Shown: in pieces, positions 2,525 through 58,895 of the stretch
How positions within the stretch are numbered: position 1 is the stretch's first letter
Layout: every line of letters begins with the position of its first letter
Source of the DNA: Minisyncoccota bacterium
GTDB lineage: Bacteria; Patescibacteriota; Minisyncoccia; JBAYJV01
NCBI GenBank assembly: GCA_041664925.1
Contig: JBAYJV010000001.1
Location: 361,183-425,182 of the forward strand
DNA: 64,000 nt
Reading direction: 5' to 3'
The notes under the pieces: generated by a model
The model's input: the letters and a program-made list of their open reading frames with translations, nothing else
Databases searched by the model: none
Told to the model about the DNA's origin: nothing
Translations under genes and position numbers: made by a program

Positions 2525-3922
2525 ATGTCTAAATCGAGGTTAATATTTTTTAGTGTTGTTGGATTTTTGATCATTATTCTTGTAGGAGGATTTTATATTT
2601 GGTTTAAAGGAGGAAAGCCCAAAGAAGTTACCTTAACTTTCTGGGGCGTTTTTAATGATACTGACCAATACTCGGGATTAATTGCCAAGTTTCGCCAAGA
2701 ACAATTGGCGCTAAAGAGAAGTCCCAAAAAAATTACAATTAATTACAAAAAATTTAATTCTTATGAAGAATATGAAAGAGCTTTGGTTGAAGCATGGACA
2801 GGGAAAATAAAGGGTCCGGATATTTTTATGATTCATGATACTTGGCTGCCCAATTATCAGCAGTATATTTACCCTTATCCCCAAACCAGCAAAAGCTCAA
2901 TGAATGCCCAATTATATCAGCAAACCTTTATGCCGGTAGCCAGTTACGACTTTTTAAGAAATGGGCAAATTTACGCCATTCCTCTGTCAATTGATACTTT
3001 GGCGCTTTACTATAATAAAGATATTTTAGACGAAATGTATCGCGGTAATCCCGATGAAGCGTGGGTTTTAAATGCGCCAAAAACATGGGATGATGTTATA
3101 AAACTTGCTGAATATACCGCGCAAAAAGATGAATGGGGAAATATCGGCCGATCAGGCATTGCTCTTGGAACAGCAAATAATATAAAAAGAGCGCAAGATA
3201 TTTTGTCTTTGATTATGCTTCAATCAGGGACACAGATGGTAGCAGACGATTTTCTTTCAACAACATTTGATAGAACCGTCACAGTCAACGGCGCTGCCTA
3301 TAATCCGGGAGAACAATCCCTTCAGTTTTATACAGATTTTGCCAATCCAAGAAAGAAAGTTTATGCCTGGAATACCCAAAAAAATTATTCAATTGATGAG
3401 TTTGCCGATGGAAATTTAACCATGATGATTGGCTATTCGTATCTTATGGGCACTATCGAAAAGAAAAATGCCAATCTTGGCTATGAAATTGGAACAGCGC
3501 CTCAACTTAAAGAAGTTAAAAAATCAGTTAATTATGCGAACTACTGGGGACTTTCCGTTCCGCGGACAACAAGTCGTCCCCAAGAAGCGTGGGATTTTAT
3601 TGAATTTTCTTCAAGATCAGAAAATGTTTTTCTTTTTCTCAGTGCTGCCAATTGCCCGACTGCAAGAATGGACATGATATCCTGGCAAGAAAAAGAGATG
3701 CCAAAATTGGGTGTTTTTGCGCGCCAAGGATTAACGGCGCAAAGCTGGTATCAAATTAATTCTGCTTCTGCCGATAAAGTGTTTTTGGAGATGATTAATA
3801 ATGTTAATATGGGAAAAGCGACACCAGCAAGAGCGATCAACGAAGCATCCAATGAATTAACGCTTTTAATGCAGCCGCCACCGCCAGAAAAAAAACCAAT
3901 TCTAAATCCATTAGATCTATAG
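2525..3922 (+). CDS. extracellular solute-binding protein, ABC-transporter SBP family-1-like, N-terminal membrane anchor
   Basis: N-terminal TM helix followed by a ~430 aa domain with the general pattern of sugar-type solute-binding proteins. No permease genes adjacent. Confidence 0.45.
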   Translation: MSKSRLIFFSVVGFLIIILVGGFYIWFKGGKPKEVTLTFWGVFNDTDQYSGLIAKFRQEQLALKRSPKKITINYKKFNSYEEYERALVEAWTGKIKGPDIFMIHDTWLPNYQQYIYPYPQTSKSSMNAQLYQQTFMPVASYDFLRNGQIYAIPLSIDTLALYYNKDILDEMYRGNPDEAWVLNAPKTWDDVIKLAEYTAQKDEWGNIGRSGIALGTANNIKRAQDILSLIMLQSGTQMVADDFLSTTFDRTVTVNGAAYNPGEQSLQFYTDFANPRKKVYAWNTQKNYSIDEFADGNLTMMIGYSYLMGTIEKKNANLGYEIGTAPQLKEVKKSVNYANYWGLSVPRTTSRPQEAWDFIEFSSRSENVFLFLSAANCPTARMDMISWQEKEMPKLGVFARQGLTAQSWYQINSASADKVFLEMINNVNMGKATPARAINEASNELTLLMQPPPPEKKPILNPLDL

Positions 3923-3928
3923 CATATT

Positions 3929-5122
3929 ATGAAAATAGCAAAAAAAATATTTGGCATATCTTTTGTTAGTTTTCTTTTGTTTTTTGCAGTTAATGTACTT
4001 GCAATAGATCCGCCAACAGGATTAAACATAAATCATAGTGGCACTCCACCGAACGTAGCCGTTATAATTGAATGGGACGACGAATCAGCTGAATATTACA
4101 AGGTTTATGCTAATGGAGTGCAAATAGGAGACGATTTTTATAATCCGACCCCTCATCATGTTTTTGTATATACCGAGTCGTCTTCTGGGGATTATGTTTA
4201 TGGCGTAGAATCTTTTGATCCAGTCACAGGAGATGTTTCGTCGCGATTGGAACAATCATACACTGTTCCTGTTGTCGATCCGCCAACTAACCTATCATTA
4301 AATCAAGACGCAGATAATCGAGTTGATGTCAGCTGGAATGGAACATCTCAACAATATAGGGTATATAGAGATGGTAATTTAGTGAATACCACGACAGCAG
4401 GCAATACAAATTTTCAGGACGTTAATGTTCCAACAGGAAATCATTTATATAAAGTAACATCATATAATGCGACGATCAACGCAGAGTCAACTCCCATTAG
4501 CGCTTCGATTGATGTTACTGGACCAGGTTCTTTTGTGGAAGACTGTGATAATACAATGGAAGATGACGGTGATGGAAAAATTGACTGCGAAGACCCTGAC
4601 TGTTCAGCAGACCCTGCTTGTGTCCCACCTCCTATTGAAATCTGCACCGGTGGCGTAGATGAAGACAACGATGGATTAGTTGATTGTGCTGATGATAATT
4701 GTCTTGGTGATCCTGCGTGTACTGGGGGAGGAACTCATCGGCCATCAGGAGATCTTTTTCCTATTATCCAATGCGGCTATAATTGTCCTGGTGTTTTTCC
4801 CGGAGATCCGGGCGCCGATTGTTGTACGCTTTGCGATGCGTTTGAGACAATATCGCGCATTATTAATATTATTTTAATGTTCGGTTTCATTTTGGGTGGC
4901 ATGTTTTTAGTGGTTGCTGGGATTATTATGTATGCAGGGGGAGCGAGTTCTGGTTTATTAAATAAATCAAAAACTATTATAAAAGGCGTGATTTTTGGGC
5001 TTGTGATTATGCTGGTTTCTTATTTAATCGTCTTTACTATTATTCATTTCCTTTCTGCCGGCAATGCTGATACTTTATTTAGTATAAAAAATGGCGGATT
5101 TGTTATCGAATGCACGCCATAA
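3929..5122 (+). CDS. secreted protein: two Fn3-like repeats + Cys/Asp-rich calcium-binding-like module + C-terminal VirB2/TrbC-like two-helix pilin domain
   Basis: Signal peptide. Two repeats each starting DPPTGLN/DPPTNLS. Block DCDNTMEDDGDGKIDCEDPDC...DEDNDGLVDCADDNC. C-terminal ~100 aa is homologous to the three following small proteins (hydrophobic helix - GG loop - hydrophobic helix). Confidence 0.4.
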   Translation: MKIAKKIFGISFVSFLLFFAVNVLAIDPPTGLNINHSGTPPNVAVIIEWDDESAEYYKVYANGVQIGDDFYNPTPHHVFVYTESSSGDYVYGVESFDPVTGDVSSRLEQSYTVPVVDPPTNLSLNQDADNRVDVSWNGTSQQYRVYRDGNLVNTTTAGNTNFQDVNVPTGNHLYKVTSYNATINAESTPISASIDVTGPGSFVEDCDNTMEDDGDGKIDCEDPDCSADPACVPPPIEICTGGVDEDNDGLVDCADDNCLGDPACTGGGTHRPSGDLFPIIQCGYNCPGVFPGDPGADCCTLCDAFETISRIINIILMFGFILGGMFLVVAGIIMYAGGASSGLLNKSKTIIKGVIFGLVIMLVSYLIVFTIIHFLSAGNADTLFSIKNGGFVIECTP

Positions 5123-5130
5123 TATAAAAT

Positions 5131-5490
5131 ATGACAAAAAAAATATCTCTTTTCGCTATGTTTTCAATATTTTGTATATTTTTGTTTCCGACGGGATTAA
5201 TATTAGCAGAAGACACCAATGCTCCTTTTGTAACTCAGATTAATAATCCAATTGGCACAACCAGTACAATAGAATTGATTAATAGGGTTTCTAACTATCT
5301 TTTATGGATGGCGGTAATTTTGGGGCCGATGGTGATTGTGGCTGCAGCTTTAATCTTTTTGACTTCGGGTGGAAACGATAGAAAAATTACAACTGCTAAA
5401 AAAATGCTTTTGTATGCAGTTCTTGGCTTAGCGTTGGCGTTAGTAAGTAAGGGTATCGTCAGCTTAGTTAAAGATTTTCTGAGCACATAG
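5131..5490 (+). CDS. VirB2/TrbC-like pilin-type small membrane protein (paralog 2 of 4)
   Basis: Signal peptide, then two hydrophobic helices separated by the loop TSGGNDRK. Shares ...GLALALVSKGIVSLV-type C-terminus with neighbours. Confidence 0.4.
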   Translation: MTKKISLFAMFSIFCIFLFPTGLILAEDTNAPFVTQINNPIGTTSTIELINRVSNYLLWMAVILGPMVIVAAALIFLTSGGNDRKITTAKKMLLYAVLGLALALVSKGIVSLVKDFLST

Positions 5491-5550
5491 TTTGGTTTAT
5501 CCACAAAAGCACTTTAAAAGGACTAATCTTGTAGTATAATGAATTAAAAG

Positions 5551-5979
5551 ATGAAAAAAACACTCTTTTCTGTTTTGTGTGCTATCATAATTTTTTCAGC
5601 CATTGTTCCTGTGGCCGTTTTTGCTGCTCCCATTGATCCTAGTGTCGGTCCACCTCCTGGAACAATAGACGACTTAACAGCAGATGATGTTGTTAGAATA
5701 ATAATTAATATTAGAAACTGGTTTGCAGGAATCGTTTTAATTATTGCAGTTGCGGCGGTTTTAGTGTCTGCGTTTATGTTTATGACCGCTGGCGGAGATG
5801 ATAAAAAAGTTGATATAGCAAAAAAGATACTTAAAAATGCCGTGATCGGCATTGTGGTTGCCCTTCTTGCCTTTGGCATAGTCAGCCTTATTTCAAGTAC
5901 ACTAAATGATCTTAGGGGTGGTGGAACTTCTGTTCCTGCTTCCGTTATTCCAACTCCAATTCCGACAAACGGCCCATAA
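5551..5979 (+). CDS. VirB2/TrbC-like pilin-type small membrane protein (paralog 3 of 4)
   Basis: Signal peptide ending AVFA/AP. NIRNWFAGIVLIIAVAAVLVSAFMFMTAGGDDKK...IVVALLAFGIVSLIS. Pro-rich C-terminal tail. Confidence 0.4.
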   Translation: MKKTLFSVLCAIIIFSAIVPVAVFAAPIDPSVGPPPGTIDDLTADDVVRIIINIRNWFAGIVLIIAVAAVLVSAFMFMTAGGDDKKVDIAKKILKNAVIGIVVALLAFGIVSLISSTLNDLRGGGTSVPASVIPTPIPTNGP

Positions 5980-6030
5980 CATAAATAAAAAATCTAAAAA
6001 TGTGATTGAATTTCACAAAGTTGAAAGGGG

Positions 6031-6429
6031 GTGAGAAAAGTGAAGATATTAAAATTTATACTTCCGTTACTAGCTATTGGTCTTTTTGTCGCACCCAATG
6101 CCTTAGCCCTTCTTCAACCAGTTAATGTTAACGGCAACATTCTACCTCCAGACAACATGAACCAGTTAAGTTCTGCAAATATGGACAGTATTACACTAGC
6201 AATTGTTAATCTCCGTAACTGGTTTGCTGGTATAGTTCTGGTTGTTGCAGTCGCCGCCCTCTTGTTCGGTGCCCTTAAATATATGTTCTCAGGAGGTGAC
6301 AGCACAAAGACCAAGGATGCTCGTGGTTGGATTGTTGGTGGTGTTATTGGCGCAATTATCGCTGCTGTGTCATTTGGCTTGGTAACAATAGTAATGAATA
6401 TTATAAAGAGCCTTACTGCTATACCATGA
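6031..6429 (+). CDS. VirB2/TrbC-like pilin-type small membrane protein (paralog 4 of 4)
   Basis: NLRNWFAGIVLVVAVAALLFGALKYMFSGGDSTK...IAAVSFGLVTIV. The NxRNWFAGIVL block is near-identical to paralog 3. Confidence 0.4.
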   Translation: MRKVKILKFILPLLAIGLFVAPNALALLQPVNVNGNILPPDNMNQLSSANMDSITLAIVNLRNWFAGIVLVVAVAALLFGALKYMFSGGDSTKTKDARGWIVGGVIGAIIAAVSFGLVTIVMNIIKSLTAIP

Positions 6430-6451: not shown

Positions 6452-6488
6452 CAAAAAAAGACCTCGTTTTAAAGGGGGTCTTTTTTTG
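6452..6488. terminator. bidirectional rho-independent terminator between convergent genes
   Basis: A-run, hairpin AAAGACC...GGTCTTT, T-run. Sits between the + gene ending 6429 and the - gene ending 6499. Confidence 0.6.
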
Positions 6489-6498: not shown

Positions 6499-8301
6499 TT
6501 ACAAAACTTCAAAGATTATTGATCTTAAATAATAATCTTTTCTTGGTACTTCACGAAATAAATCCGGTCTCGATTTTAATAAATACACAAGTTCTTTTAT
6601 TGCCCATCTTTCACGATTGTTAATAAAAAAATATTTTGCAGGGAAATAATTTTTAATTGTTTTATAAATATTTGAAGCATTTTGAGGGGTGCATATTTTT
6701 TGGTAATCAGGACACTTTTGAGAATCACAAACTGTACCGCTGAGCATATTTGCCCAAAACCAATAAAGTTTTTCGCTGTAAACATACATGAAGGTTGGAT
6801 CCATAGCGGAAATATAGTAGCCTTTATCGTTAAAATAAAATAATCCGGGAAAATCAGACCAATATGTGTGTAAAATCAATTCTTTTTCTTTTGTGTTTTC
6901 CCTGAGAAACGAAGAAGTTTCCCTAAAGGCATAAAAATTATTTTCATATCTGTTTACGGAAAGCCAAAAAGAACACTCTAAGTAACTTAGAAATAAAAAT
7001 AACAAAGGAAGGACAAAAATAATCATTCTTTTTAAGTCAAAACAACGAAATTTTTCTACGGTAGATGATTGTTCTTTTAAGAAAAAATAGCTAATGATTA
7101 TACTGAGCGAAAAAACAGTCAAAGGCACAAAATATTCGATAAACCTGTTTGCGAACAAAGAAAAAGCCAAAAAAATACTTGTCAATACGAAAAGATAAAA
7201 AATAAAAAAACTGTTATCATTTTTTGTTATTTCTTTTCGGGAAAAAAGTAATGAAAATCCAATAACAGGCAAAATAAACCAACAAATTAAGATTAGCATG
7301 GAATAAATTATTCCTAATTTGCTTGAAATGATTGATGAATAAGTAAAAATTATCAAATTAAAGCCAAGAACCAGATTAAAGAGGCAAAAAACCACAACCT
7401 TTTTAGGGCTAATAATTGTTTTATGGCTAAATTTATAAAAAATCAAAAAAACCAAAAACAAATAAGCAACTAAAATTAAGAGTCCCCATCCGTCAAAAGG
7501 ATTAAAACCAACCGACAACTCAGCTCCAAAATTTAACCCAGCACCCTTAATTTTATAGAATATTGTCAAGAAATTTTGAACAAAAAGCATTTTTAAATTA
7601 TTAGGAAAATCTGGGCGTAAAACTAAGCCAAAAATGATACCGGGAATAATCGAAGTTAAAATTTTAAAATCGAATATTTTTTTATAAATAATCTCTAAAG
7701 CAAGATAAACAAGGGCAAGAATACCAAGCAGAATGAAGGCAGCAGGGTAGGTTAGAGCAAAAAACCAAGAAACAAAAAAAAGCGCAATATACTTGCGCTT
7801 AAAAATGAAATAAATACTCAAAAAGAGACAAATAATAGAAAAAATGAAATCGCGCGGCAAAAGCAATCTAAATAAGAAACTAAAATTGACCAATAAAAGA
7901 AATCCTGTCCAAAAAAAAGGAAACTTAATATTTAATTTATTTAGTAGATAGTAGAAAACCAGACAAAACAAAGCAGAAAAAATAACTGAAGATAATTTAA
8001 TTCCAAAAACTAAATCTTTAAAAAAAGTAAATGGCAACAAAAGCAAGTGATATCCGAGCCAAATATCCGACGGATATTTGCTTAGAATTGAATATTGCGT
8101 CCACGGAAAACTTTGAATTGCAGACAATCCTTCTGTTCTAATAAGATAAGCGTGCTTAATATGATAGTAGCTGTCTGGATCGAGAGATCCAGCAAATGAA
8201 AATTGCAATAATGCAAAAAAAATCACAAAAATAATAAAAAATGATAGAAATCTGTATTTATTCAACTCTTTAAAAACATTTTCTATTATTTTAATTTTCA
8301 T
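6499..8301 (-). CDS. polytopic membrane protein, putative GT-C-fold glycosyltransferase (PMT/ArnT-like) with C-terminal soluble domain
   Basis: More than 10 predicted TM helices followed by a ~150 aa Cys-containing hydrophilic C-terminal domain. Sits in an operon with GT2 and methyltransferase genes. Confidence 0.35.
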   Translation of the reverse strand: MKIKIIENVFKELNKYRFLSFFIIFVIFFALLQFSFAGSLDPDSYYHIKHAYLIRTEGLSAIQSFPWTQYSILSKYPSDIWLGYHLLLLPFTFFKDLVFGIKLSSVIFSALFCLVFYYLLNKLNIKFPFFWTGFLLLVNFSFLFRLLLPRDFIFSIICLFLSIYFIFKRKYIALFFVSWFFALTYPAAFILLGILALVYLALEIIYKKIFDFKILTSIIPGIIFGLVLRPDFPNNLKMLFVQNFLTIFYKIKGAGLNFGAELSVGFNPFDGWGLLILVAYLFLVFLIFYKFSHKTIISPKKVVVFCLFNLVLGFNLIIFTYSSIISSKLGIIYSMLILICWFILPVIGFSLLFSRKEITKNDNSFFIFYLFVLTSIFLAFSLFANRFIEYFVPLTVFSLSIIISYFFLKEQSSTVEKFRCFDLKRMIIFVLPLLFLFLSYLECSFWLSVNRYENNFYAFRETSSFLRENTKEKELILHTYWSDFPGLFYFNDKGYYISAMDPTFMYVYSEKLYWFWANMLSGTVCDSQKCPDYQKICTPQNASNIYKTIKNYFPAKYFFINNRERWAIKELVYLLKSRPDLFREVPRKDYYLRSIIFEVL

Positions 8302-8882
8302 TTTTTATTTTGAAAAAGATATAGACAATTAAGTCCAAGCTCAAACGATTTTTGTTTTATGATCTTAAAATTATATTTTTCAAGTATTTGTATTAAGTTT
8401 TTTGGTGAATAATATAATTTATGCCCTGTAATTTCTTCACGGCTTATCAAGAATAATTTTGCAGATAATTTCAATATGGATTTAGATAGGGGTTTCGGAG
8501 TTGTGATTAATAAAAAAGCATTTTTTTTCAGAATGCGACCAGATTGTTCTAATAGAAGTTCTAATTCTCTAAATTCGAGATGTTCAATCACAGCTAGAAG
8601 AGTAATAATGTCGAAAAAGTTATTTTCAAACTTAGGCAAAATATCCTTAGCAACCCCTCTCTTTATATGAATATTTTTCTGATCTAAATTATTACTTTTT
8701 GGGTCTAAGCCCCATCCGCCAAACTTATTTACTAAAAAATAATCGCTTCCACAACCAATATCAAGAAGACGAAAAGTGTTTTTATTAAAAAGCGTTTTTA
8801 TTAATGATTTTGCCTTATTTATTCTAATGTCTCTGATAAGAATATCAATTTTATTAAAATCATTTTTTTTAAGGAATCGCAT
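8298..8882 (-). CDS. class I SAM-dependent methyltransferase
   Basis: LLDIGCGSDYF motif I. Start overlaps the stop of the upstream gene by 4 bp (operon). Confidence 0.55.
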   Translation of the reverse strand: MRFLKKNDFNKIDILIRDIRINKAKSLIKTLFNKNTFRLLDIGCGSDYFLVNKFGGWGLDPKSNNLDQKNIHIKRGVAKDILPKFENNFFDIITLLAVIEHLEFRELELLLEQSGRILKKNAFLLITTPKPLSKSILKLSAKLFLISREEITGHKLYYSPKNLIQILEKYNFKIIKQKSFELGLNCLYLFQNKK

Positions 8883-8886
8883 TTTA

Positions 8887-9591
8887 TTAGTCCTTAAAAC
8901 GGTATTTTATTAAAGTTAGAATTGCAACCAAACCATCTTTCCAATTGATTTTTTTGCCATGTTTTTTATTGCGGGGAAAATATTTAATCGGTAATTCATA
9001 AATTTTTATTTTCTTTTTTGCAATTTTTGCTGTTACTTCTGGACAAAACTCGAAATGGGAACACTTCAGGTCAAGGCCCTTGATTATTTCTTTTTTGAAC
9101 ATTTTATAACAAGTTGGTTCGTCGGTAATTCTTGTATTATATAAAAAATTAGTTAAGAGGCTTAAGAATAATCCACCTAGGTAAAAGGTTGGACTTGAAA
9201 TCTGGTTTTTGCCTCGTGTTCTTGATCCATAAACTACTTCTGCCAAACCATCTTGAATAGGTTTAATAAGTCTTAGGAGGTCTTGGGGATCATATTCTAG
9301 GTCAGCGTCTTGAATTACCACTACATCTCCGTTAACATACTTCAATCCTTCTCGAATTGCATAGCCCTTGCCAAAATTTCGTTCCAGAAGGATAATTTTT
9401 AAATTTTGGTCGTTATTTAATATAATTTCTGACAAAAGATCGCGAGTTCCATCTACCGAACCATCATCAACGATAATAATTTCTTTATCAATGTCTAGTT
9501 CTATAACTTTCTTTAAAATCTCATTGACTGTTAATTTCTCGTTATATATTGGAATGATAATAGAAAGCTTCATAATTCTACTTAATACCAA
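8887..9591 (-). CDS. GT2-family glycosyltransferase (polyprenol-phosphate sugar transferase, DPM1/ArnC-like)
   Basis: LSIIIPIYNE...IIIVDDGSVDGT...VIQDADLEYDP: canonical GT-A DXD-containing GT2 motifs. Confidence 0.7.
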   Translation of the reverse strand: MVLSRIMKLSIIIPIYNEKLTVNEILKKVIELDIDKEIIIVDDGSVDGTRDLLSEIILNNDQNLKIILLERNFGKGYAIREGLKYVNGDVVVIQDADLEYDPQDLLRLIKPIQDGLAEVVYGSRTRGKNQISSPTFYLGGLFLSLLTNFLYNTRITDEPTCYKMFKKEIIKGLDLKCSHFEFCPEVTAKIAKKKIKIYELPIKYFPRNKKHGKKINWKDGLVAILTLIKYRFKD

Positions 9592-10948
9592 TTAGACGAC
9601 TCAATGGAATTCTGTAAACAGGCAATAAACTAGACCTTAAGTCTTTATAAATTAAATAAACTACTGCAAAAATCAGAAAAGTGAGTGCAATAGATTCAAA
9701 AAATACATAAGACAAAAGACCCAGAGAACACCAAAAAAATATGGGCCTATGTAATCCTTTTATAATAAAGAATGGCATCATCCACATCAAATACCATGGA
9801 TGCAAATGAGGCATTACCAAAACATACAGAGCAAGAAAAATATGAATTGAAAAAGTCGCAATACCGTCTGATTCGATTAATCTATTAAAACAAAAGAACC
9901 CAAAGATCAATAAGCCCACAGCTACAATAGCGCAGTGTTGCATATAGTCAAATTTTATTCCTAATAAGTTCCCTATGAAAAATACAGGAGAGGAATAATG
10001 AGACTGAGGGAGTAGTAATTGAACGAATAATCCGTTTGACGAAAACGAACTAGAGCATATACAAAACAAAAAAAACACCAACAAAGCACAGAGAATAAAG
10101 CTGTATATCAATATGGATAATTTTATATTTTTTTGAACGATCTTTTTGAAAAAAAACAACAATGGAAGCCAAAATATATATTTAACTAATCCAGATAATA
10201 ACAAGAAAAAAATAGACAAAGATTGTTTTTTTGTGAAAAGAAAATAACAGCCAATTACTCCAATAAATATCATAACAATATCATTATGACCATTGTTAAT
10301 AAATTCAATCAAGCACAACGGATTCCACGCCATTAAAAAGATAGCTTTTTTGTTAAAATTTTTATTTAGATGATTGATTAATTTATATATAAATAAAATG
10401 GTTAGTGAGTAAAATACAAAATTAACCATTTTAAACAAGAATAAATTAAGCGTGGTATTTGTCGCAGAAACTTTTACTAGCAGGACACTAAGCCAATGAA
10501 ATAATGGTCCGTTTTGCTGAGGAATGGTTTGCCACGACGTATAAGCAGATAATGGATCATTAGGAAAAGATGATGGGGCTACTACATAAGCATTTTCTTT
10601 ATAAATTGTGGCAATACGAGCAGAGAAAATAGAATGATATAGGTCTACCGAATTCATCAAAGGCGTCAATAAAAGTACGACGCAAAACAAAAAATAACCA
10701 ATTAAGATCTGGTTAATGGTTATTTTTCTAATATTTCTGTAGGCGAAATAAAACAACAAAAGTAAAGCACAATAAATAAAACCAATTAAGTAATAGCGAT
10801 AAGAATAATATCCCATTAAGTAACTAAAAACTGGCAATTTTACCTCTTGCAATCTAAGGAAAGCCAAAAAAATGTATAAAAAAAATGTTGCACCAAAAAA
10901 AAGATAAAACTTTTTATAATTTTTTATAGACAACAATAACGATTGCAT
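9578..10948 (-). CDS. polytopic membrane protein (putative membrane glycosyltransferase)
   Basis: 12+ hydrophobic segments, no soluble domain, operon context with GT2. Confidence 0.3.
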   Translation of the reverse strand: MQSLLLSIKNYKKFYLFFGATFFLYIFLAFLRLQEVKLPVFSYLMGYYSYRYYLIGFIYCALLLLFYFAYRNIRKITINQILIGYFLFCVVLLLTPLMNSVDLYHSIFSARIATIYKENAYVVAPSSFPNDPLSAYTSWQTIPQQNGPLFHWLSVLLVKVSATNTTLNLFLFKMVNFVFYSLTILFIYKLINHLNKNFNKKAIFLMAWNPLCLIEFINNGHNDIVMIFIGVIGCYFLFTKKQSLSIFFLLLSGLVKYIFWLPLLFFFKKIVQKNIKLSILIYSFILCALLVFFLFCICSSSFSSNGLFVQLLLPQSHYSSPVFFIGNLLGIKFDYMQHCAIVAVGLLIFGFFCFNRLIESDGIATFSIHIFLALYVLVMPHLHPWYLMWMMPFFIIKGLHRPIFFWCSLGLLSYVFFESIALTFLIFAVVYLIYKDLRSSLLPVYRIPLSRLIGIK

Positions 10949-10959
10949 TATTATAAAAA

Positions 10960-12441
10960 TTACAGTATTTTTCCAATTAAATATTCTACGGGTGCGAAAG
11001 AGTCAGTTAGAATAGGTGTTTCAGAAGGAATAATTATATGATTTTCTAAATTATTAAAATAGGTTTCAAATTCTGTGCCGGAAATACTGTTGAGCATTGC
11101 TGATAAATCGAAATCTTTATTTTTTAAAGAGACAATCATAATATTTTGGACAGTCTTTTGATCTTGAGTTTCAACGGGAAAGACCAAAACATTGGGAAAT
11201 ACCGTTTTTAATGTTTTATATTCTGCTTTGAAAAACTCGCTCTTTTCTCCTGAAAGCGCAGAAATAACATTTGTGATCAAAACTCCATTTTTATTGAGAG
11301 CATTATGCATCTTTTCAACAACTTCTTTTGTTGTTAATTGATGCGGAATGGCGTAAGTTGAACTAAAGGCATCGTTATAAATCACATCATATTTTTCTTG
11401 ATTATTGTTTAGATAAATTCTTCCATCCTCGTGAAATACCCTAAGTCTTTCATCTTCTTTTAAGTCAAAGTAGGTTTTGGCTAGTTTTGTTACTTCAGGA
11501 TCAATCTCTACAACATCAATCTCGCCTTGAGAATGTCTTTTTAAGAAATCTTTTGGCACAGAATAGGCGCCACCACCAATCATAAGAGCTTTTTTGATAT
11601 TAGAATAAAAAAAATCACCGAGACGGTAAAATTTGGTATATTCAAAAACCAATTCATCGGATTGATCGAGGTACATAGCCGAATGAAAATCGCTTCCCAT
11701 TCTCAGAATTCTAATTGGTCGATCTTCTTTATTTCTTGTATCGTAAATTTCTATATGGTTATATGCGCTGTCTTTTTCAACTAGGTATTTTGCATTTAAA
11801 CTTTCTGATAAAAATACAAGCCCAGAGAAAGTCACCAAAAAGAATGCAGATAAAAGAATTGCTCTTTTCAAAGAGTACGCCATTATTGATGTTAAAATAA
11901 GAACTAAACTAATGCCAAAAAGAATATGTTCGAGCTTGAAGTAGGGGATTAACCAAAAACCTGCTAAAAATGTCCCAAAAATACTACCCAAAGTTGAAAG
12001 CGCGTAAAGTGTGCCAGCCGTTTTTCCTGATGTTTGGATATTTTTTATTTTAAGTTTTAGTGCGTAAGGAGAAACCATGCCCAGTAAAATTGAAGGAATC
12101 GCAAAAAGAAAAAAGGCGGCAAAGATTCCGCCCAATTTTATATTCATCAAAGCACCAAATTCTAGAATAGAGTCTTTAAACAAAGGAAGTATTCCAATAA
12201 AGACAGCGCTTGCAAGAATTATGCCAGCAAGATAGTTGGGTTTAGGCTTAAGGTCAGCCAATTTTCCTCCTAGCCAATAACCAAGACTCAGGGCGCCTAA
12301 AATAATCCCTATCAAGCTTGCCCAAATATAAATAGATGTCCCTAGGTAGGGAGCAATAATTCGAGCACCCAAAAGTTCCAAAATCATCACAGATGCTCCG
12401 CAGATAAAAACTATCAGTTCTAGCTTGCTAATCTTTTTCAT
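10960..12441 (-). CDS. spermidine/spermine-synthase-like aminopropyltransferase fused to N-terminal multi-TM domain
   Basis: N-terminal ~200 aa with 6-7 TM helices, then a PABS-like domain: ALMIGGGAYSVPKDF (GGGDG-like), DVVEIDPEV, DVIYNDAF. Confidence 0.55.
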   Translation of the reverse strand: MKKISKLELIVFICGASVMILELLGARIIAPYLGTSIYIWASLIGIILGALSLGYWLGGKLADLKPKPNYLAGIILASAVFIGILPLFKDSILEFGALMNIKLGGIFAAFFLFAIPSILLGMVSPYALKLKIKNIQTSGKTAGTLYALSTLGSIFGTFLAGFWLIPYFKLEHILFGISLVLILTSIMAYSLKRAILLSAFFLVTFSGLVFLSESLNAKYLVEKDSAYNHIEIYDTRNKEDRPIRILRMGSDFHSAMYLDQSDELVFEYTKFYRLGDFFYSNIKKALMIGGGAYSVPKDFLKRHSQGEIDVVEIDPEVTKLAKTYFDLKEDERLRVFHEDGRIYLNNNQEKYDVIYNDAFSSTYAIPHQLTTKEVVEKMHNALNKNGVLITNVISALSGEKSEFFKAEYKTLKTVFPNVLVFPVETQDQKTVQNIMIVSLKNKDFDLSAMLNSISGTEFETYFNNLENHIIIPSETPILTDSFAPVEYLIGKIL

Positions 12442-27610: not shown

Positions 27611-28597
27611 TTAATTACAAGAACCAGCTGCTGCAGGCGTTGTCGTGGAACTTTCCTGAAGAGTCGTATTGCATACTTCTGGTTTTGTAGTAAAGGCACC
27701 ACATATTGCAGTTTGGTAATCGCTTATTGATCTAGAACCATCATAGTACATATCGTTAATGATGAGAGTTGGAGAACCAGAAATTTTTTCTGTTGCATTG
27801 CCTTGATGGCTTGTAGAATCTTGAACCTGATAATCTTTACTAGTTAAAACAACTTCTTGATCTAGAAGGGCAGTTGCTTCGTTTTTCTGACAAGTCTTAA
27901 TTTTGGCAACATCAATACCTAATTTTTTAGCAATTGCTTCCCATTTCGAATCAGAATCTTGAGCGGTACTATTAGCATTCATTTCTCCAACAAAGCTCCA
28001 TAATTTTTCTTTTTGGTATTTTTGAACGCAAAGTTCACGAACATCTTGATTTACTTCTTGGGTGCCATGCATTGAACAATATTTGTTTTCTTTATCAATG
28101 CAAAAATCAGGATAACCCGAAGAATAATTGCTGTAAATAACATAATGGAGTTCAATATCTGTTGTGTTTTTTAAAAGATTAACAACGGGAATTATTGCAT
28201 CTTCTGCTTGATTACCGTAAGGGCAATAAGACATAACAAACAATTTTACATTTGGCCTTTCTGTTTTGGAAATCTCCTTTGGTTTTGCGGGATTCAAATC
28301 AACTTTCTGGGGAAAAAGATAATTTCCATCAAGTGTGGCATAAGATTCATAACTTTGCCCTAAAACATTAAGGGAAACTTTATACAAAGAGCCTGATAGT
28401 TCAATTTTGTCTACAGAAACTTTACTTGGATCACCAACTTCTTTTCCAATGACCTCAACAATTTTTTTACTAACTGCTTCTTTTGAAAGAGCATTTGAGC
28501 CGCCTGGATTACCAAAATTTTGGTAGGCCAAAGCTGCAGCTAAAACTAAAACTATTCCTCCCAAAATGACTATTGGTAAAGTATTTTTTTTAGTCAT
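27611..28597 (-). CDS. secreted/membrane-anchored Cys-rich protein with thioredoxin-fold-like segment (DsbA-like, atypical CPYG motif)
   Basis: N-terminal TM anchor. FVMSYCPYGNQAED resembles a thioredoxin-fold active-site region but has a single Cys. Several Cys pairs lie further on. Confidence 0.3.
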   Translation of the reverse strand: MTKKNTLPIVILGGIVLVLAAALAYQNFGNPGGSNALSKEAVSKKIVEVIGKEVGDPSKVSVDKIELSGSLYKVSLNVLGQSYESYATLDGNYLFPQKVDLNPAKPKEISKTERPNVKLFVMSYCPYGNQAEDAIIPVVNLLKNTTDIELHYVIYSNYSSGYPDFCIDKENKYCSMHGTQEVNQDVRELCVQKYQKEKLWSFVGEMNANSTAQDSDSKWEAIAKKLGIDVAKIKTCQKNEATALLDQEVVLTSKDYQVQDSTSHQGNATEKISGSPTLIINDMYYDGSRSISDYQTAICGAFTTKPEVCNTTLQESSTTTPAAAGSCN

Positions 28598-30341: not shown

Positions 30342-31028
30342 TTAAATTTCTATGTGTTTTATTTCTGGTGGCTGCTCTTCTTTTTGTTTTGTGCCTTTCT
30401 CTCTTTTTTCATAAGGCCTACCAAATGGATCCAGAATTTCACTAAATGGAATTTTTATCATTCCTTGGGGTGTTCTAAAAATTGCTATTTCGCTATCACA
30501 ATATATTAATTCACCGTTTATAATACCAAGTTCGGTTCTGTGACCCCTTGATCCGACAGATGGCCAATCTGGGAATATTTCTGTTATTGTCGGTTGTTCT
30601 GTTTTGGAAACAATTAACTGTAATTCTTCTGGAGATAATTCTTTCGCTGATGGTGGCAAAATCGGGGGATTCTCTGGAGACTCTTCTATAGGATATTTTT
30701 CTCCTTTTTTCAACAAAATACACGAAGCAACAACTCCTTTTCTCTTTAATATATCAAGCATCTGTCTCAATTCTTCTTCGTGATATGGGTTATAATTTTT
30801 AACAAGAATTTCTGGTCTATCTTCGGAGAGCACATCGATTTCAATATTGCCCTTATCGAAAGTATCTATAATTATCGTAATTCTCCCATCTTCGCAAGTG
30901 TTTTGTGATTCCAATTTACAGCCCAGACTTTCAAATGCCTCAGCAATAGATCGTGCAGTACTTTCTGTTATTTTTTCTCGAGAGAGTATTTTCTCTCCTT
31001 CTTTTGGTGAAAATTCCCCAGAATGCAT
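30342..31028 (-). CDS. hypothetical protein (228 aa)
   Basis: Clean ORF; no recognisable family motif. Confidence 0.3.
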   Translation of the reverse strand: MHSGEFSPKEGEKILSREKITESTARSIAEAFESLGCKLESQNTCEDGRITIIIDTFDKGNIEIDVLSEDRPEILVKNYNPYHEEELRQMLDILKRKGVVASCILLKKGEKYPIEESPENPPILPPSAKELSPEELQLIVSKTEQPTITEIFPDWPSVGSRGHRTELGIINGELIYCDSEIAIFRTPQGMIKIPFSEILDPFGRPYEKREKGTKQKEEQPPEIKHIEI

Positions 31029-31061
31029 ATATTTTTAATATTAAATGATATTGCGAATTTG

Positions 31062-31135
31062 TGGGCTCGACAGGACTTGAACCTGTGACCTTCTCAATGT
31101 CACTGAGACGCTCTAGCCAACTGAGCTACGAGCCC
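31062..31135 (-). tRNA. tRNA-Val (anticodon GAC)
   Basis: GGGCTCG acceptor, anticodon loop GTGACAT, T-loop TTCAAGT. Confidence 0.75.
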
Positions 31136-31140
31136 ATTTT

Positions 31141-31282
31141 TATTAAACCCGAAGCATTAAACCTGAAATCCGAAACAATATTTAAATTATAATTCTTAAA
31201 TTCAAAACAGTTTTTTTAAAATAAACATTTAGATTTTGAATTTGTCTCGAATTTCGAAATTCGATATTCGAATTTATTAATG
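31141..31282. repeat. intergenic repeat element copy B (homologous to 16365-16500), contains perfect 16-mer palindrome CGAATTTCGAAATTCG
   Basis: Blocks AAACCCGAAGCA, CCGAAACAA, ATTCAAAA and TTCGAATTT in the same order as copy A. Palindrome at 31248-31263. Confidence 0.6.
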
Positions 31283-31286
31283 TATG

Positions 31287-31360
31287 CGTCCCCAGCTGGG
31301 CTTGAACCAGCAACCTACAGCTTAGAAGGCTGTCGCTCTATCCAATTGAGCTATAGGGAC
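31287..31360 (-). tRNA. tRNA-Arg (anticodon TCT)
   Basis: GTCCCTA acceptor, anticodon loop CTTCTAA, T-loop TTCAAGC. Confidence 0.75.
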
Positions 31361-31373
31361 ATTAGAAACATTA

Positions 31374-32009
31374 TTATGCCTTCCTTAAAATAACAAGCTT
31401 GGTTTTTTCTCGATTTAATTTTTCCGGTTCTAATTTCAACTTATCCAATTCTTCTTTTTCTTGGCCTATTTCCTGAATAAAATAATCAGCATTACTAAGA
31501 CCCATCTTGTCATCATGATCAGCGTCTGTTTTATAGAACATAGGAATGACTATAGCGGGCTCTATTTGATGAACGATTTCTACTGCATCGGTTGCCTCAA
31601 GCACAGATTTGCCACCAACAGGTATCATTAAAACATCAACCCCATCTATTTTTTCCAATAACTTTCCTACCGAAGATTTTTGCCTAATCGTGCCCATATG
31701 GACCAATGTTGAGCCATTCCAATGAATGACAAAAATATTATTCATTGTTTTATCCGGACCAGCAGAAGAATGCACCTGAATACTGATATCTTGAACTTCA
31801 TATTCTCCTGGGTAGGTAAATGTATATTTTGTTTTATTAATAGTATTCTTATCGTACTTGAGAAAATCAGGATTACTCAAAAGACAAACATCTGGAGTGT
31901 CTTCAGATGGTTTTATGTCGTAAGTCTTATTGTCTACTGGATCAATCCAAAGGCTAATACTTCCATCATTGATTTTGAAAAATGATAAACCTTGCCAATC
32001 AATAGTCAT
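31374..32009 (-). CDS. MBL-fold metal-dependent hydrolase-like protein (Lactamase_B_3-like)
   Basis: C-terminal VDVLMIPVGG...LEATDAVEIV..IEPAIVIPMFY resembles the UPF0173-type beta-lactamase-fold hydrolase C-terminus. His motifs are degenerate. Confidence 0.4.
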   Translation of the reverse strand: MTIDWQGLSFFKINDGSISLWIDPVDNKTYDIKPSEDTPDVCLLSNPDFLKYDKNTINKTKYTFTYPGEYEVQDISIQVHSSAGPDKTMNNIFVIHWNGSTLVHMGTIRQKSSVGKLLEKIDGVDVLMIPVGGKSVLEATDAVEIVHQIEPAIVIPMFYKTDADHDDKMGLSNADYFIQEIGQEKEELDKLKLEPEKLNREKTKLVILRKA

Positions 32010-32269
32010 AAAATAGTTATTTAAAAATTAATCTTTGTATTCTTATTATACCTGATTGTAAGTTTTTTTTCTAAAAAAGCAAGTTTATTCTTAAAAAAAC
32101 GTGCTTTATTTTCGAAAAACACAATAAATCACTTGAAAAAAATAAAATACCGGCTATAATAGAAAATCTACAGCATCCAGCTGATCATTTTTTGTGCTGG
32201 TACTGTTTTCATTCCTTGAATGAATATTTGTTTATTCAATGGCATGAATTAATTTGAAAGGAGCTTTTA

Positions 32270-33406
32270 ATGACTAATGTAAAAATAAGTAAAAAGGACA
32301 AAGATAAAAAAAATAAATTCGATATAGATTTTCTAAAAAAAGGGGAAATTGTCGAAGCTAAAGTTATAAGTAAGGGGCGCAAGATTATCTATTTTGATTT
32401 GGGCGCCAGAGGAATGGGAATATGCTATAAAAGTGAATTTTTTGATTTACCCCAAGATATGAGGGAAATTGAAGAGGGAAAAGCGATTGCTGCTAAAGTC
32501 TTACAGCTTGAAAACGAAGAAGGGTATGTTGAGTTATCTCTTAAGAGAGCAGGAGAAGAGAAGAGCTGGGATTACATTAAAGACAAGATGGAAAAAGGAG
32601 AGGATATTACAGTTAAAATCGTCGGAGCTAATAGGGGTGGTCTTTTAGCCAAGGTTAGAGACATTGACGCTTTCTTGCCAGCCTCTCAATTGTCTAAAGA
32701 CAATTATCCAGATTTTGGCGGAGACAGCGAAAGAATTCTCAAAGAACTTAAAAATCTGGTTGGAAAAGATCTGCAAGTACGCATCGTTGACATTGAGAAA
32801 AATGACAAAAAACTAATTTTATCTGAAAAAGCAGACGAAACAGAGAAAATTAAAGAGAGAATCAAGAATCATCAAATTGGTGACATTGTTGAGGGAAAAG
32901 TTTGTGGAATTGTTGATTACGGAGCGTTTATTAAATTTGACGATAACCTAGAAGGACTAGTGCACATATCAGAAATAGATTGGCAACTCATTGAGGATCC
33001 TAGAGATGTTTTGAAGGTTGGTCAAGACGTTAAAGCAAAAATTATCGGGTTAAGAGATAATCAGGTATCTCTTTCCCTTAAGGCGCTAAAGCAAGATCCG
33101 TGGCTTGAAATTAAGGATAAATATCAGAGGGGCGATGTGGTTAAGGCAGAAGTTGTAAAATTAAATCCTTATGGTGCTTTTGTAAAACTTGACGAGAAAA
33201 TTCAAGGATTAGTACCAATCTCAAAACTTCCAACGAAAGATGGACAAATATCAATTGAAATTGGGAAACAGTACAAATTCAAAATATTCTCAGTTAATAT
33301 TTTGCGCCACCGCATGGCATTAATACCAGCCGAAGAGGCAGAAAAGACTGAGAAAAAAACAGAAAAGACAGAAAAAGTAAATGAGATAGAAAAAGAAAAA
33401 AAGTAA
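32270..33406 (+). CDS. rpsA: 30S ribosomal protein S1 (short, 4 S1 domains)
   Basis: Four tandem S1/OB repeats (GEIVEAKV..., DITVKIVGANRGG..., GDIVEGKVCGIVDYGAFI..., GDVVKAEVVKLNPYGAFV...). Confidence 0.8.
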   Translation: MTNVKISKKDKDKKNKFDIDFLKKGEIVEAKVISKGRKIIYFDLGARGMGICYKSEFFDLPQDMREIEEGKAIAAKVLQLENEEGYVELSLKRAGEEKSWDYIKDKMEKGEDITVKIVGANRGGLLAKVRDIDAFLPASQLSKDNYPDFGGDSERILKELKNLVGKDLQVRIVDIEKNDKKLILSEKADETEKIKERIKNHQIGDIVEGKVCGIVDYGAFIKFDDNLEGLVHISEIDWQLIEDPRDVLKVGQDVKAKIIGLRDNQVSLSLKALKQDPWLEIKDKYQRGDVVKAEVVKLNPYGAFVKLDEKIQGLVPISKLPTKDGQISIEIGKQYKFKIFSVNILRHRMALIPAEEAEKTEKKTEKTEKVNEIEKEKK

Positions 33407-57955: not shown

Positions 57956-58783
57956 ATGACTGTGGATAAAAATAAAACAAAAACCTCATTTCTGTCGGAA
58001 GATATAAAACCGCAAAAATCTTTAGGGCAAAATTTTCTTTTAGGTCAAGAAATACTTAATGAAATAGTTGATCTGGCAGAAGTGAAAACGAGCGATACAG
58101 TTCTTGAGATTGGACCAGGAACAGGATCTTTAACAAAAGAATTGGCAAAAAATGCCTCAAAAGTTATTGCGGTGGAAAAAGACGAGAAATTAATTTTCGT
58201 TCTTAAGGAAGAATTAAAAAACTACAAAAATATTGAAATTATTTGTAGCGACATTAGGGAGTGGCTTAATAGTGATAATTTAAAAATACAGGAACCATAC
58301 AAGCTTGTGGCCAATTTGCCATATTATTTGAGCAGTTTTATCATTAGACGGTTTTTAGAAATTAAACAAAAACCGGAAATGATTGTTTTAACTCTCCAAA
58401 AAGAACTTGTTGAGAGAATTTGCGAAAGAGAAGGAAGAATGAGTCTTATTTCAATCATGGTAAATCTCTATGGGAAACCTCAGTTGGGGCCTATTATTAC
58501 CAGAGATAAATTTTATCCTGCTCCTCAAGTTGATTCACGGGTTTTAATTATAAAAGATATAAAAAAGCCGGAGAATATTGATGAAAAATATTTTTTCCGG
58601 ATTCTTCGAATTGGATTTTCAAGCAAAAGAAAAAAACTTTTAAGCAATCTTAAAAATGGAACACGACTTTCAAAAGAAAAATTAAAAGAAATTTTTAATG
58701 ATTTATTCATTAGTGACATGGTCAGAGCTCAAGAATTGTCACTAGATCAATGGAAGAAATTGAGTGCCAAGATAAAGACATAG
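57956..58783 (+). CDS. rsmA: 16S rRNA (adenine1518/1519-N6)-dimethyltransferase
   Basis: SLGQNFLLGQEI...VLEIGPGTGSLT...NLPYYLSS: KsgA/RsmA motifs. Confidence 0.85.
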   Translation: MTVDKNKTKTSFLSEDIKPQKSLGQNFLLGQEILNEIVDLAEVKTSDTVLEIGPGTGSLTKELAKNASKVIAVEKDEKLIFVLKEELKNYKNIEIICSDIREWLNSDNLKIQEPYKLVANLPYYLSSFIIRRFLEIKQKPEMIVLTLQKELVERICEREGRMSLISIMVNLYGKPQLGPIITRDKFYPAPQVDSRVLIIKDIKKPENIDEKYFFRILRIGFSSKRKKLLSNLKNGTRLSKEKLKEIFNDLFISDMVRAQELSLDQWKKLSAKIKT

Positions 58784-58895
58784 GAAACCTAGAATTGACA
58801 ACTAAAAAATAGGTGTCAGAAACTATAGAAAATATGCCCAGTTGTCCCCAGTTTTCGTGGTTTAACTTGGGATTTTTTTTGTTATAATTGAACCA

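Follow-up and report, generated by a model that had tools for sequence, protein, structure and literature searches.

The stretch of DNA analyzed here (the window, 64,000 nucleotides) contains four + strand ORFs in a row at 3929-6429, and this locus raises the question of what kind of protein they encode and which machinery they might serve. The question touches on a wider one, namely how the type IV secretion systems (T4SSs) of Patescibacteria, which depend on host bacteria, contact and recognize a host. A preliminary description, made from the sequence, had read the four genes as VirB2/TrbC-like pilins sharing a C-terminal module of two helices and a GG loop, the first of them fused to an adhesin-like ectodomain. 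The genes and the features that border them are as follows.

2525-3922, + strand: orphan solute-binding protein with a membrane anchor (SBP_bac_8/1), its gene ending 6 nt 5' of the fusion gene
3929-5122, + strand: fusion gene (397 aa), annotated at NCBI as 'hypothetical protein' WC242_02665
5131-5490, + strand: predicted small pilin p1 (119 aa), PF18895 above the cut-off
5551-5979, + strand: predicted small pilin p2 (142 aa), the best PF18895 match of the four, named 'pilin' at NCBI
6031-6429, + strand: predicted small pilin p3 (132 aa), PF18895 above the cut-off, GTG start with GAAAGGGG upstream
6460-6487, unstranded: terminator-like hairpin, -10.7 kcal/mol, z -3.2 by folding

The locus is best explained as a pilin operon on the chromosome of a Candidatus Paceibacterota (Patescibacteria/CPR) bacterium, represented by a MAG. 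The array is closed by the hairpin at 6460-6487, which has an A-run before it and a T7 run after it and would serve both the pilin operon and a convergent gene; it was spotted by eye and by folding, and a promoter/terminator scan gave no excess over the shuffled expectation. The neighbors of the array are gyrA, a methyltransferase gene, the orphan solute-binding protein (SBP) gene and glycosyltransferase genes. The order gyrA, methyltransferase, SBP, fusion, pilins is kept on six independent contigs, and the orphan SBP gene is the upstream neighbor of the fusion gene in all related loci. In one of these six contigs (L016), which comes from a distant relative, the ectodomain of the fusion is unrelated and 387 aa long. 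An ORF artefact was rejected: these gene calls recur in assemblies made independently by NCBI, JGI, ENA and Logan. A phage or mobile-element origin of the array was also considered and rejected; the locus lies between housekeeping genes in conserved synteny.

A predicted signal peptide and a pair of hydrophobic helices joined by a basic loop with GG make up a module common to all four proteins. The gene coordinates given earlier were verified, and the loop motifs TSGGNDRK, TAGGDDKK, FSGGDSTK and YAGGASSG were all found. Hydropathy analysis detected an N-terminal signal-type segment and two TM-length segments in each protein, with K/R-rich loops between the helices, and each has one AxA-like site (VLA/ID, ILA/ED, VFA/AP and ALA/LL, the slash marking the cleavage predicted from sequence), in agreement with the signal peptides that had been proposed for the small proteins. 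The paralogy of the four also holds on alignment. The small pilins match each other in BLASTP with E-values of 1e-16 and 9e-16 at 29-39% identity, and the fusion protein matches p2 with an E-value of 0.004. When the fusion module and the small pilins were aligned profile to profile with hhalign, the probability was 96.4% (E 1.2e-9, 79 columns), and the HMMs of the fusion set and of the small pilins find each other only, among all ORFs of the window.

The module was assigned to a family by comparison with the Pfam profile PF18895 (T4SS_pilin), which has a curated gathering cut-off of 26.6 bits. All three small proteins score above it (p1 29.1, p2 47.5 and p3 35.8 bits), and p2 and all of its homologues bear a precomputed PF18895 label. 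The C-terminal module of the fusion stays below the cut-off (14.4 bits, E 0.041), yet PF18895 is its top match, and six of the seven members of the fusion-module subfamily match PF18895 (best E 3.9e-5). A profile search with the fusion module retrieved 3876 relatives, and among the best 150 of these, PF18895 was found in 132, TrbC (E<=1e-3) in 20 and an SLT lytic transglycosylase domain, which is VirB1-like, in 11. The C-terminus of the fusion is treated here as a putative divergent member of PF18895. The TrbC/VirB2 family PF04956 (cut-off 27.9 bits), which the preliminary description had named for a profile search, was matched weakly by p1 over the full profile length (15.2 bits, E 0.025), below the cut-off, and by none of p2, p3 and the fusion at E<=1. 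This indicates that the relationship to PF04956 is distant and that the four proteins would not belong to that family itself; it was PF18895 that bore out the VirB2-like character of the array instead.

The AF2 model of p2 has helices at residues 44-79 and 84-123, and its best Foldseek match, the Aeropyrum conjugation pilus, was non-significant. Sequence searches of the PDB with the pilin profiles returned nothing relevant, only a designed repeat protein and PsaF signal peptides, and a scan of genome contigs with the module alignment gave one weak locus only. Type IV (PilA) and Flp pilins were rejected, as no N_methyl or Flp family was found at E<=1 in Pfam or NCBIfam and the leaders are of the ordinary Sec type with AxA sites, which agrees with the earlier choice of VirB2/TrbC-like over type IV or Flp pilins. 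It is most improbable that these are unrelated small membrane proteins (holins, bacteriocin/immunity or stress proteins) resembling pilins by hydrophobic composition only. The weak compositional matches that two-TM proteins tend to give, here to MgtC, DUF1097 and Bacteriocin_IId (E 0.026, in one relative), would be expected of such proteins, whereas three of the proteins pass a curated PF18895 threshold and the fourth has this family as its top match, VirB1-like SLT fusions occur among the module relatives, and the surroundings are housekeeping genes in conserved synteny. The holin variant, which had been named beforehand as an example of an unrelated family, finds no holin family at E<=1 in Pfam and no phage or lysis context. 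On the evidence of these profile and alignment searches, the proteins very probably belong to the VirB2-like pilins.

The first gene of the array encodes this module at the end of a longer protein, in which a signal peptide is followed by two Fn3 domains, two acidic double-disulfide repeats, a Cys-rich cap, the VirB2-like hairpin and a C-terminal beta-hairpin tail ending in IEC. Its parts are located as follows.

3929-4003, + strand: Sec-type signal peptide, residues 1-25, predicted cleavage VLA/ID (hydropathy; AF2 helix 4-23)
4004-4519, + strand: two predicted Fn3-fold beta-sandwiches, about residues 26-115 and 116-197 (AF2, Foldseek)
4544-4720, + strand: two acidic double-disulfide repeats (MopE-related, DxDxDG-type), residues 206-231 and 239-264 (NCBIfam NF033662)
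4772-4834, + strand: Cys-rich cap before helix 1, QCG...CCTLCD, with C282, C286, C298, C299 and C302
4829-5119, + strand: VirB2-like hairpin and tail (AF2, hhalign, PF18895-bearing relatives)

Both beta domains open with DPPT, at residues 27 and 117 (the second as DPPTNLS), and are 27% identical to each other (BLASTP E 4e-5). The Fn3 repeats noted earlier missed the Pfam fn3 cut-off (13.7 bits against 25), but were recovered at the level of fold: the AF2 model has strands at 33-113 and 120-196 with a pLDDT of 75-96 in the beta-sandwiches, and its Foldseek matches in the PDB are tandem Fn3 domains with E-values of 4e-9 to 1e-7 (about 190 columns for the match at 4e-9). The Fn3 identity of both domains is thus confirmed by the predicted fold and not by a sequence profile. 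The Cys/Asp-rich block, which had been likened to Ca-binding modules, corresponds to two copies of the acidic double-disulfide repeat NF033662 (50.6 bits, cut-off 41) with four Cys each (206/220/225/231 and 239/253/258/264). Homologues retrieved in the searches are labelled MopE-related or PF11617, and the repeats are probably Ca-binding. Three Cys of the cap (C282, C299 and C302) are shared by 90% or more of the best 150 module relatives, and C395 in the tail is a partner Cys. The hairpin comprises a helix at 301-336, a GGAS loop followed by a K-rich segment, and a second helix at 341-375 (AF2 pLDDT >90 in the helices); the tail, residues 376-397, is predicted to be extracellular. In the solved T-, N- and F-pilins, the basic loop lines the lumen (10.1101/2022.04.28.489814). 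Large extensions of the module occur among its best 150 relatives at the N-terminus (17), at the C-terminus (47) and at both ends (3), and extensions at either end fit a topology in which both termini lie outside. The outer domains carried on the module are of Fn3/MopE type here, and lectin-like domains and VirB1-like SLT enzymes elsewhere. The earlier idea of an adhesin on a pilin was therefore right as to architecture, with adhesion itself a proposed function.

To what extent the parts of this locus vary was assessed by comparison with two near-identical relatives, L003 and L008. The methyltransferase is 97-100% and the SBP 94-95% identical to those of the two relatives, and the fusion module is 97-98% identical, whereas the fusion ectodomain is 42% identical with a different domain count. 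At the DNA level, similarity ends just past the signal peptide and returns in the repeat/module region; the blastn gaps span 3953-4595 relative to L003 and 4009-4674 relative to L008, with flanks of 87-90% DNA identity. The interval that lacks similarity to both is the following.

4009-4595, + strand: core of the hypervariable ectodomain cassette, without blastn similarity to L003 and L008

By these comparisons, the fusion ectodomain is a replaced cassette on a highly conserved pilin module. No silent copies of the cassette were found in the window. The small pilins are 54-83% identical to those of L003 and L008, and the variation is confined in a similar way: relative to L003, 63-65 of the 67-69 residues of their hairpins are identical, versus 8/35 to 15/24 in the exposed N-terminal segments. 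The three small pilins are old paralogues with positional orthologues in the relatives (77-79% identity for p1 in L003 and L008), which suggests a specialized subunit set; the exposed pilin termini and the ectodomain of the fusion change much more quickly than the flanking genes do, which suggests diversification. The two readings offered earlier for four paralogues in a row, a subunit set or diversification, are both supported.

The pilins raise the question of an assembly machinery, which the preliminary description had not found. It was correct that the window holds no VirB4 or VirD4; a T4SS locus nevertheless starts at its 3' end.

58896-64000, + strand: start of the T4SS locus, after ksgA, with three secreted/TM proteins (283, 238 and 951 aa) and a polytopic membrane ORF

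The polytopic membrane ORF begins at about 63340 and runs off the end of the window. Past this end, the same contig encodes PrgI/VirB3, a TrsD-like protein, VirB4 and a fifth PF18895 pilin. VirB4 (NF045971, 390 bits, cut-off 325) lies about 5.2 kb beyond the window and about 63 kb from the array, and PrgI scores 34.4 bits (cut-off 27). The parts of the locus are located 52-65 kb downstream of the array and are not adjacent to it. The system is a monoderm-type (MPF-FATA-like) T4SS, and no VirB5-type tip adhesin was detected in its readable stretch. The machinery had been suspected to be encoded elsewhere, and these components on the same contig agree with that; the other suggestion, an undescribed filament, is not needed since T4SS parts were found. 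An independent surface filament or structure assembled without a T4SS is quite improbable. The distance of about 52 kb between the array and the T4SS locus, and the tight and conserved linkage of the array to the orphan SBP instead, would suit it, but VirB4, PrgI and TrsD adjoin a further PF18895 pilin on the same contig, virB4 has pilin genes in its vicinity in 1135 of 1948 assemblies of Patescibacteria (PMC12102498), and the window contains no alternative assembly ATPase.

We consider it fairly probable that the array is a pilin operon working with the T4SS, with the fusion as an adhesin-bearing subunit. According to this model, p1-p3 would be Sec-exported PF18895 pilins whose termini both face outward after cleavage of the signal peptide, and the subunits would enter the monoderm (MPF-FATA-like) T4SS encoded on the same contig from the membrane. 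From the small pilins, a short pilus or conduit would be built in the direction of the host cell, and the modular pilin, with an ectodomain of about 250 residues N-terminal to the Cys-capped hairpin, would be a low-copy subunit displaying an adhesin on this structure. If every subunit bore an appendage of 250 residues, packing into a five-start pilus would be difficult, so the fusion could be no more than a minor subunit, or may be non-polymerizing. It may stand in for a VirB5-type tip adhesin; according to one review, VirB5 is absent from monoderm systems. The exposed parts, namely the ectodomain cassette and the N- and C-termini of the small pilins, would be free to diversify or to be swapped, while the parts that pack, namely the helices and the module with its Cys cap, would be held constant. 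Filament formation and adhesion are proposed here, and we infer polymerization from homology. As regards the separate steps, we lean mildly toward a filament or conduit of the pilins that works with the T4SS, and regard an adhesin role of the fusion as quite possible, if on balance doubtful.

The strongest competitor of this model regards the module not as a filament subunit but as a membrane component or anchor associated with the T4SS, the small proteins being parts of an inner channel or assembly platform and the fusion a surface protein on a two-helix anchor. Gram-positive-type T4SSs are generally without pili (PMC12102498, PMC12857230), a filament has never been observed, and such a role would parallel those Gram-negative systems that need VirB2 with or without a pilus. 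The module is joined, at one end or the other, to a variety of unrelated extracellular domains, SLT enzymes included, as a generic anchor would be. A plain anchor, however, would need neither 97-98% conservation nor a conserved Cys cap and a C-terminal tail while the neighboring pilins vary. Invariant helices with variation at the termini only are in keeping with tight packing of subunits, and several old paralogues with a basic lumen-type loop are pilin-like. We judge the anchor unlikely, and continue with the pilin operon as the preferred reading.

A broader form of the pilin reading is put forward only tentatively. The VirB2-type pilin of Patescibacteria would be a modular display scaffold, a conserved disulfide-capped module with interchangeable outer domains; the T4SS pilus itself would act as the organelle of host recognition and wall piercing, the fused subunit would replace VirB5, and replacement of the cassette would set the host range. 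A pilin with a swappable adhesin beside pilins that diversify at their ends is a testable candidate for a determinant of host specificity.

Tandem arrays of VirB2-like genes have been described from Patescibacteria before, in publications of 2023 and 2025, and are widespread, with 441 arrays in 383 assemblies; known examples are SEML1_0006-0019 of Southlakia epibionticum ML1 and the 'Sec-secreted array' of TM7x (PMC10633639, PMC12102498, PMC12857230). In S. epibionticum, the one genetically tractable species, the pilin array and the T4SS are essential (PMC10633639). No T4SS pilus has yet been seen in any Patescibacterium. By the published definition, an array comprises two or more pilin genes that follow each other directly or are one gene apart and have low mutual identity (Quinonero-Coronel et al. 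2025, PMC12102498), and the locus described here has four consecutive genes with 25-36% identity among the small paralogues. It also resembles the published arrays in its family (PF18895/PF04956 profiles defined the known ones), in its tandem divergent paralogues (reported mean identity 25%) and in its monoderm host with an MPF-FATA-like T4SS without obvious relaxase context. The array itself is one more example of a published phenomenon, and the novelty implied for it earlier is reduced to that extent. Unlike the published arrays, it is found in Paceibacterota, about 52 kb outside the T4SS cluster, and is headed by a 397-aa ectodomain-pilin fusion with a conserved orphan SBP upstream. Domain-extended pilins are not mentioned in PMC10633639, PMC12102498 or PMC12857230. 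What is new is the fusion with a swappable adhesin-like ectodomain as the first gene of a syntenic locus, which is not described in the literature searched.

The classical conjugative pilins, VirB2 (T-pilus), TraM (N-pilus), TraA (F-pilus), TrbC and the archaeal CedA1 type (PDB 8dfu), share with the present proteins a leader, two hydrophobic helices and a short basic loop, whereas the TrbC (PF04956) cut-off is unreached here and the host has no outer membrane. To our knowledge, a conserved disulfide-type Cys cap and tail do not occur in classical VirB2 proteins. Tandem variable pilin copies are also found in the Trw system of Bartonella, with multiple variant copies of TrwL/VirB2 and TrwJ/VirB5, and the pilin copies are thought to diversify binding to host surfaces (PMC12857230, PMC12102498). 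The Trw adhesin VirB5 is a separate protein, whereas the candidate adhesin described here would be covalently fused to the pilin module, and p1-p3 are not recent amplifications but old paralogues conserved in position. The modular type IV pilins PilB and PilC of Streptococcus sanguinis likewise combine a polymerization module with an adhesion module in a minor subunit (PMC8179133), but they belong to an entirely different filament superfamily, the type 4 filaments, carry a class III signal peptide and are processed by PilD. The likeness, which we draw by analogy, is functional and not homologous, and it would extend the idea of the modular pilin from type IV pili to conjugation-type pilins.

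The window comes from the chromosome of a low-GC bacterium with a small genome and carries many housekeeping genes (gyrA, leuS, tsaD, rny, clpP, tig, nusA, rpsA, ftsH, pnp and groEL) together with 11 tRNAs. An ORF check found the four genes claimed at 3929-6429 exactly as stated. The pilin array of the preliminary description is confirmed, and its interpretation is supported by the analyses that follow. The operon and its upstream neighbor are organized as follows:

2525-3922 (+), orphan membrane-anchored solute-binding protein, SBP (SBP_bac_8/1, weakly MalE-like)
3929-5122 (+), modular pilin of 397 aa, with a VirB2-like C-terminal hairpin region termed the module
5131-5490 (+), small pilin p1, 119 aa
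5551-5979 (+), small pilin p2, 142 aa
6031-6429 (+), small pilin p3, 132 aa
6460-6487, operon end, hairpin with a T-run (−10.7 kcal/mol, z −3.2 by folding)

The SBP gene ends 6 nt before the modular pilin gene, and the spacers between the four pilin ORFs are 8, 60 and 51 nt. A promoter-like element at 5513-5540 (+), TTTAAA-16-TATAAT, lies 10 nt 5' of the p2 start and could allow separate, higher expression of p2; the promoter scan overall was not above shuffled expectation.

All three small pilins exceeded the gathering score of Pfam family PF18895, T4SS_pilin (26.6 bits), with 29.1 (p1), 47.5 (p2) and 35.8 bits (p3). Similarity to TrbC/VirB2 (PF04956) was weaker, p1 reaching an E-value of 0.025 across the whole profile, and the proteins also resemble NF045849, the Mycoplasma ICE 'pilin-like conjugal transfer protein'. 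Holin, Flp and N-methyl pilin families of Pfam and NCBIfam gave no match even at E<=1, and the reading as VirB2/TrbC-like rather than type IV or Flp pilins holds. The NCBI name of p2 is already 'pilin'. By hydropathy, each small pilin combines a Sec-type leader and its AxA-like site with two hydrophobic segments of TM length and a K/R-rich GG loop; the AF2 model of p2 consists of two long helices, 44-79 and 84-123. BLASTP among the three (E 1e-16 and 9e-16, 29-39% identity) indicates that they are true paralogues. Since each is 51-83% identical to its positional orthologue vs 25-36% to its paralogues, the paralogues are old and probably specialized.

The modular pilin is 100% identical to NCBI 'MAG: hypothetical protein WC242_02665 [Candidatus Paceibacterota bacterium]'. 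Its AF2 model (mean pLDDT 78.5) starts with a signal helix and beta-sandwiches at 33-113 and 120-196; a Cys/Asp region modelled with lower confidence follows, then two helices, 36 and 35 residues long (pLDDT >90), and a C-terminal beta-hairpin. The two proposed Fn3-like repeats stand by fold, the sandwiches matching tandem Fn3 fragments in Foldseek (E 4e-9), but not by profile, as their Pfam fn3 score, taken alone, is under the cut-off. The Cys/Asp block, likened earlier to Ca-binding modules, proved to consist of the acidic double-disulfide repeat NF033662 in two copies (50.6 bits vs a cut-off of 41), and homology searches bring up MopE-related/PF11617 proteins for it.

On PF18895 the C-terminal 130 residues reach no more than 14.4 bits. 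However, a module profile built from seven orthologues matched a profile of ten neighboring small pilins with 96.4% probability (E 1.2e-9), and six of the seven orthologues individually match PF18895. An exhaustive search with this profile recovered 3876 relatives among 1.84 billion representatives; the top 150 contain PF18895 in 132 cases, TrbC in 20 and an SLT lytic transglycosylase in 11. Because of the profile-profile match, the individual orthologue matches and the prevalence of PF18895 among relatives, we regard the module as a divergent T4SS_pilin. That the four genes encode unrelated membrane proteins is highly unlikely. Additional conserved features of the module are QCG...C(C)TLC ahead of helix 1 and ...GGFxIEC at the C-terminus. 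These conserved cysteines are extracytoplasmic and would staple both ends of the hairpin. A thioredoxin-like or GILT-like thiol-disulfide protein is encoded at 27611-28597 (−) and may be relevant to forming the many extracellular disulfides predicted for the modular pilin.

Independent contigs from JGI, ENA and Logan repeat the order gyrA, methyltransferase, SBP, ectodomain-pilin and three to four small pilins. On one related contig of 769 kb, the gyrA that precedes this pilin locus (L001 4978-8049) contains an intein (PF14890); gyrA of the window is cut by the window start. A distant relative (L016) keeps the gene order with an unrelated 387-residue ectodomain. In two near-identical relatives, L003 and L008, the flanking methyltransferase and SBP are 97-100% and 94-95% identical to those of the window and the module 97-98%, whereas the ectodomain is only 42% identical. 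Domain number also differs (two Fn3 and two repeats in L003, one and one in L008), and more distant relatives show other combinations. DNA identity of 87-90% extends to 3952 or 4008, a little beyond the signal peptide, is absent until 4596 or 4675 and then returns. The ectodomain is a replaced cassette within a fixed frame. No silent cassette copy was found within the window.

The small pilins, at 54-83% identity, are likewise more diverged than the flanking proteins. Compared with L003, their segments between signal peptide and helix 1 share 8/35 to 15/24 residues and their C-terminal tails also differ, while the hairpins are identical at 63-65 of 67-69 residues. Lattice packing of the helices, with the termini exposed at the surface, would be expected to give such varied termini around constant helices. 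The main alternative, in which the module serves as a membrane component or anchor associated with the T4SS and no filament forms, is less likely. Among the 150 closest module relatives, extensions of at least 100 aa are N-terminal in 17, C-terminal in 47 and on both ends in 3, which fits an N-out, C-out topology. Extended pilins also occur in tandem (three genes of 494, 400 and 321 aa in L014). Eleven relatives, including P0067 and P0118 (L015 731-2425), carry T4SS_pilin modules fused C-terminally to a VirB1-like SLT lytic transglycosylase, and one has Laminin_G_3. In L003 (12124-13154) p3 is duplicated, the copies being 71% and 74% identical to p3 of the window; by sequence, copy number is still changing within the array.

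The SBP gene is the conserved upstream neighbor of the operon even in L016, with no ABC permease or ATPase gene nearby, and a functional SBP-pilin link is possible. Downstream, a convergent cluster of membrane glycosylation-type genes at 6499-12441 (−) encodes a 600-aa polytopic protein without a Pfam match, a methyltransferase, a GT2, a 456-aa MptA_B-like GT-C and a 493-aa TM plus spermine-synthase-like protein. Its content varies between close relatives, L008 having PMT_2 instead; that it could glycosylate surface proteins, for instance at the S/T/N-rich N-termini of the pilins, is speculation. Gene orientation (minus-strand at 6.5-32 kb, plus-strand at 32-47 kb) and GC skew change sign at ~31000-32300, with the cumulative skew minimum near 30-32 kb. 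Either a replication origin or mere coding-strand bias could explain this; the ORFs scanned included no dnaA.

The preliminary description had found no VirB4/VirD4-type ATPase in the window, and this holds; its suggestion that the machinery is encoded elsewhere was correct. The region of ksgA and the T4SS locus spans 57956-64000 and continues on the source contig (JBAZBV010000002.1, GCA_041671265.1) as L010 12885-21841:

57956-64000, ksgA and then, from 58896, a run of secreted or TM proteins (TSP3-repeat, 283 aa; 238 aa; 951 aa)
from ~63340 and off the window end, 1090-aa polytopic protein, VirB6-like candidate by position only
past the window end, 292-aa protein, no family named, and small 23S_rRNA_IVP gene
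past the window end, PrgI/VirB3 (34.4 bits vs cut-off 27)
past the window end, TrsD/VirB4-N-like protein
past the window end, VirB4 (NF045971, 390 bits vs cut-off 325)
past the window end, 193-aa membrane protein
contig end, fifth PF18895 pilin (40.3 bits)

In the profile search, neither the 951-aa nor the 1090-aa protein matched a family. Directly upstream of, and divergent from, ksgA is a 978-aa ORF with an N-terminal signal or TM segment (54951-57887 (−)), which, like the 642-aa (41670-43598 (+)) and 330-aa (46334-47326 (+)) ORFs, has no Pfam family. With VirB4 and a fifth pilin on the same contig, an independent filament, the other option raised for an array with no ATPase beside it, is unlikely.

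For a pilus or conduit built by this T4SS, the reading we prefer, we infer the following mechanism. Once exported by Sec and freed of their leaders, the subunits would be membrane hairpins whose basic loop is cytoplasmic, and the VirB4-driven T4SS would extract them into a short pilus or conduit; there the loop would line the lumen and the termini would point outward. The shaft would consist of one or more of the small pilins. The Cys-capped modular pilin would enter this structure only seldom, perhaps as its first subunit, which would place it at the tip. There it would display its Fn3 domains and probably Ca-binding repeats to the host and substitute for a VirB5-type tip adhesin, none of which was detected in the readable part of the T4SS locus. 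Diversification of the exposed parts would follow changes in host surfaces or help to evade phages and predators.

Patescibacteria pilin arrays were published in 2023, as an essential series of predicted pilins within a T4SS cluster of Southlakia epibionticum (PMC10633639), and in 2025, when a survey with PF18895 and PF04956 detected VirB2-like pilins in 1948 assemblies and counted 441 arrays, each of 2-11 genes, at ~25% mean identity (PMC12102498); the array as such is therefore not new but a further example of a published kind, ordinary for the phylum. A 2025 review considers that these pilins might form a pilus on a monoderm cell (PMC12857230). Pilins with large fused ectodomains were not mentioned in the literature searched, and the conserved modular pilin with its swapped ectodomain is a modestly novel, testable variant. 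The solved T-, N- and F-pilins, with two hydrophobic helices and a lumen-facing loop bearing basic residues (10.1101/2022.04.28.489814), fit the same description as p1, p2 and p3. The T4SS locus is a monoderm MPF-FATA-like system as described for Patescibacteria, and it shares with those systems their frequent position near ksgA (PMC12102498).
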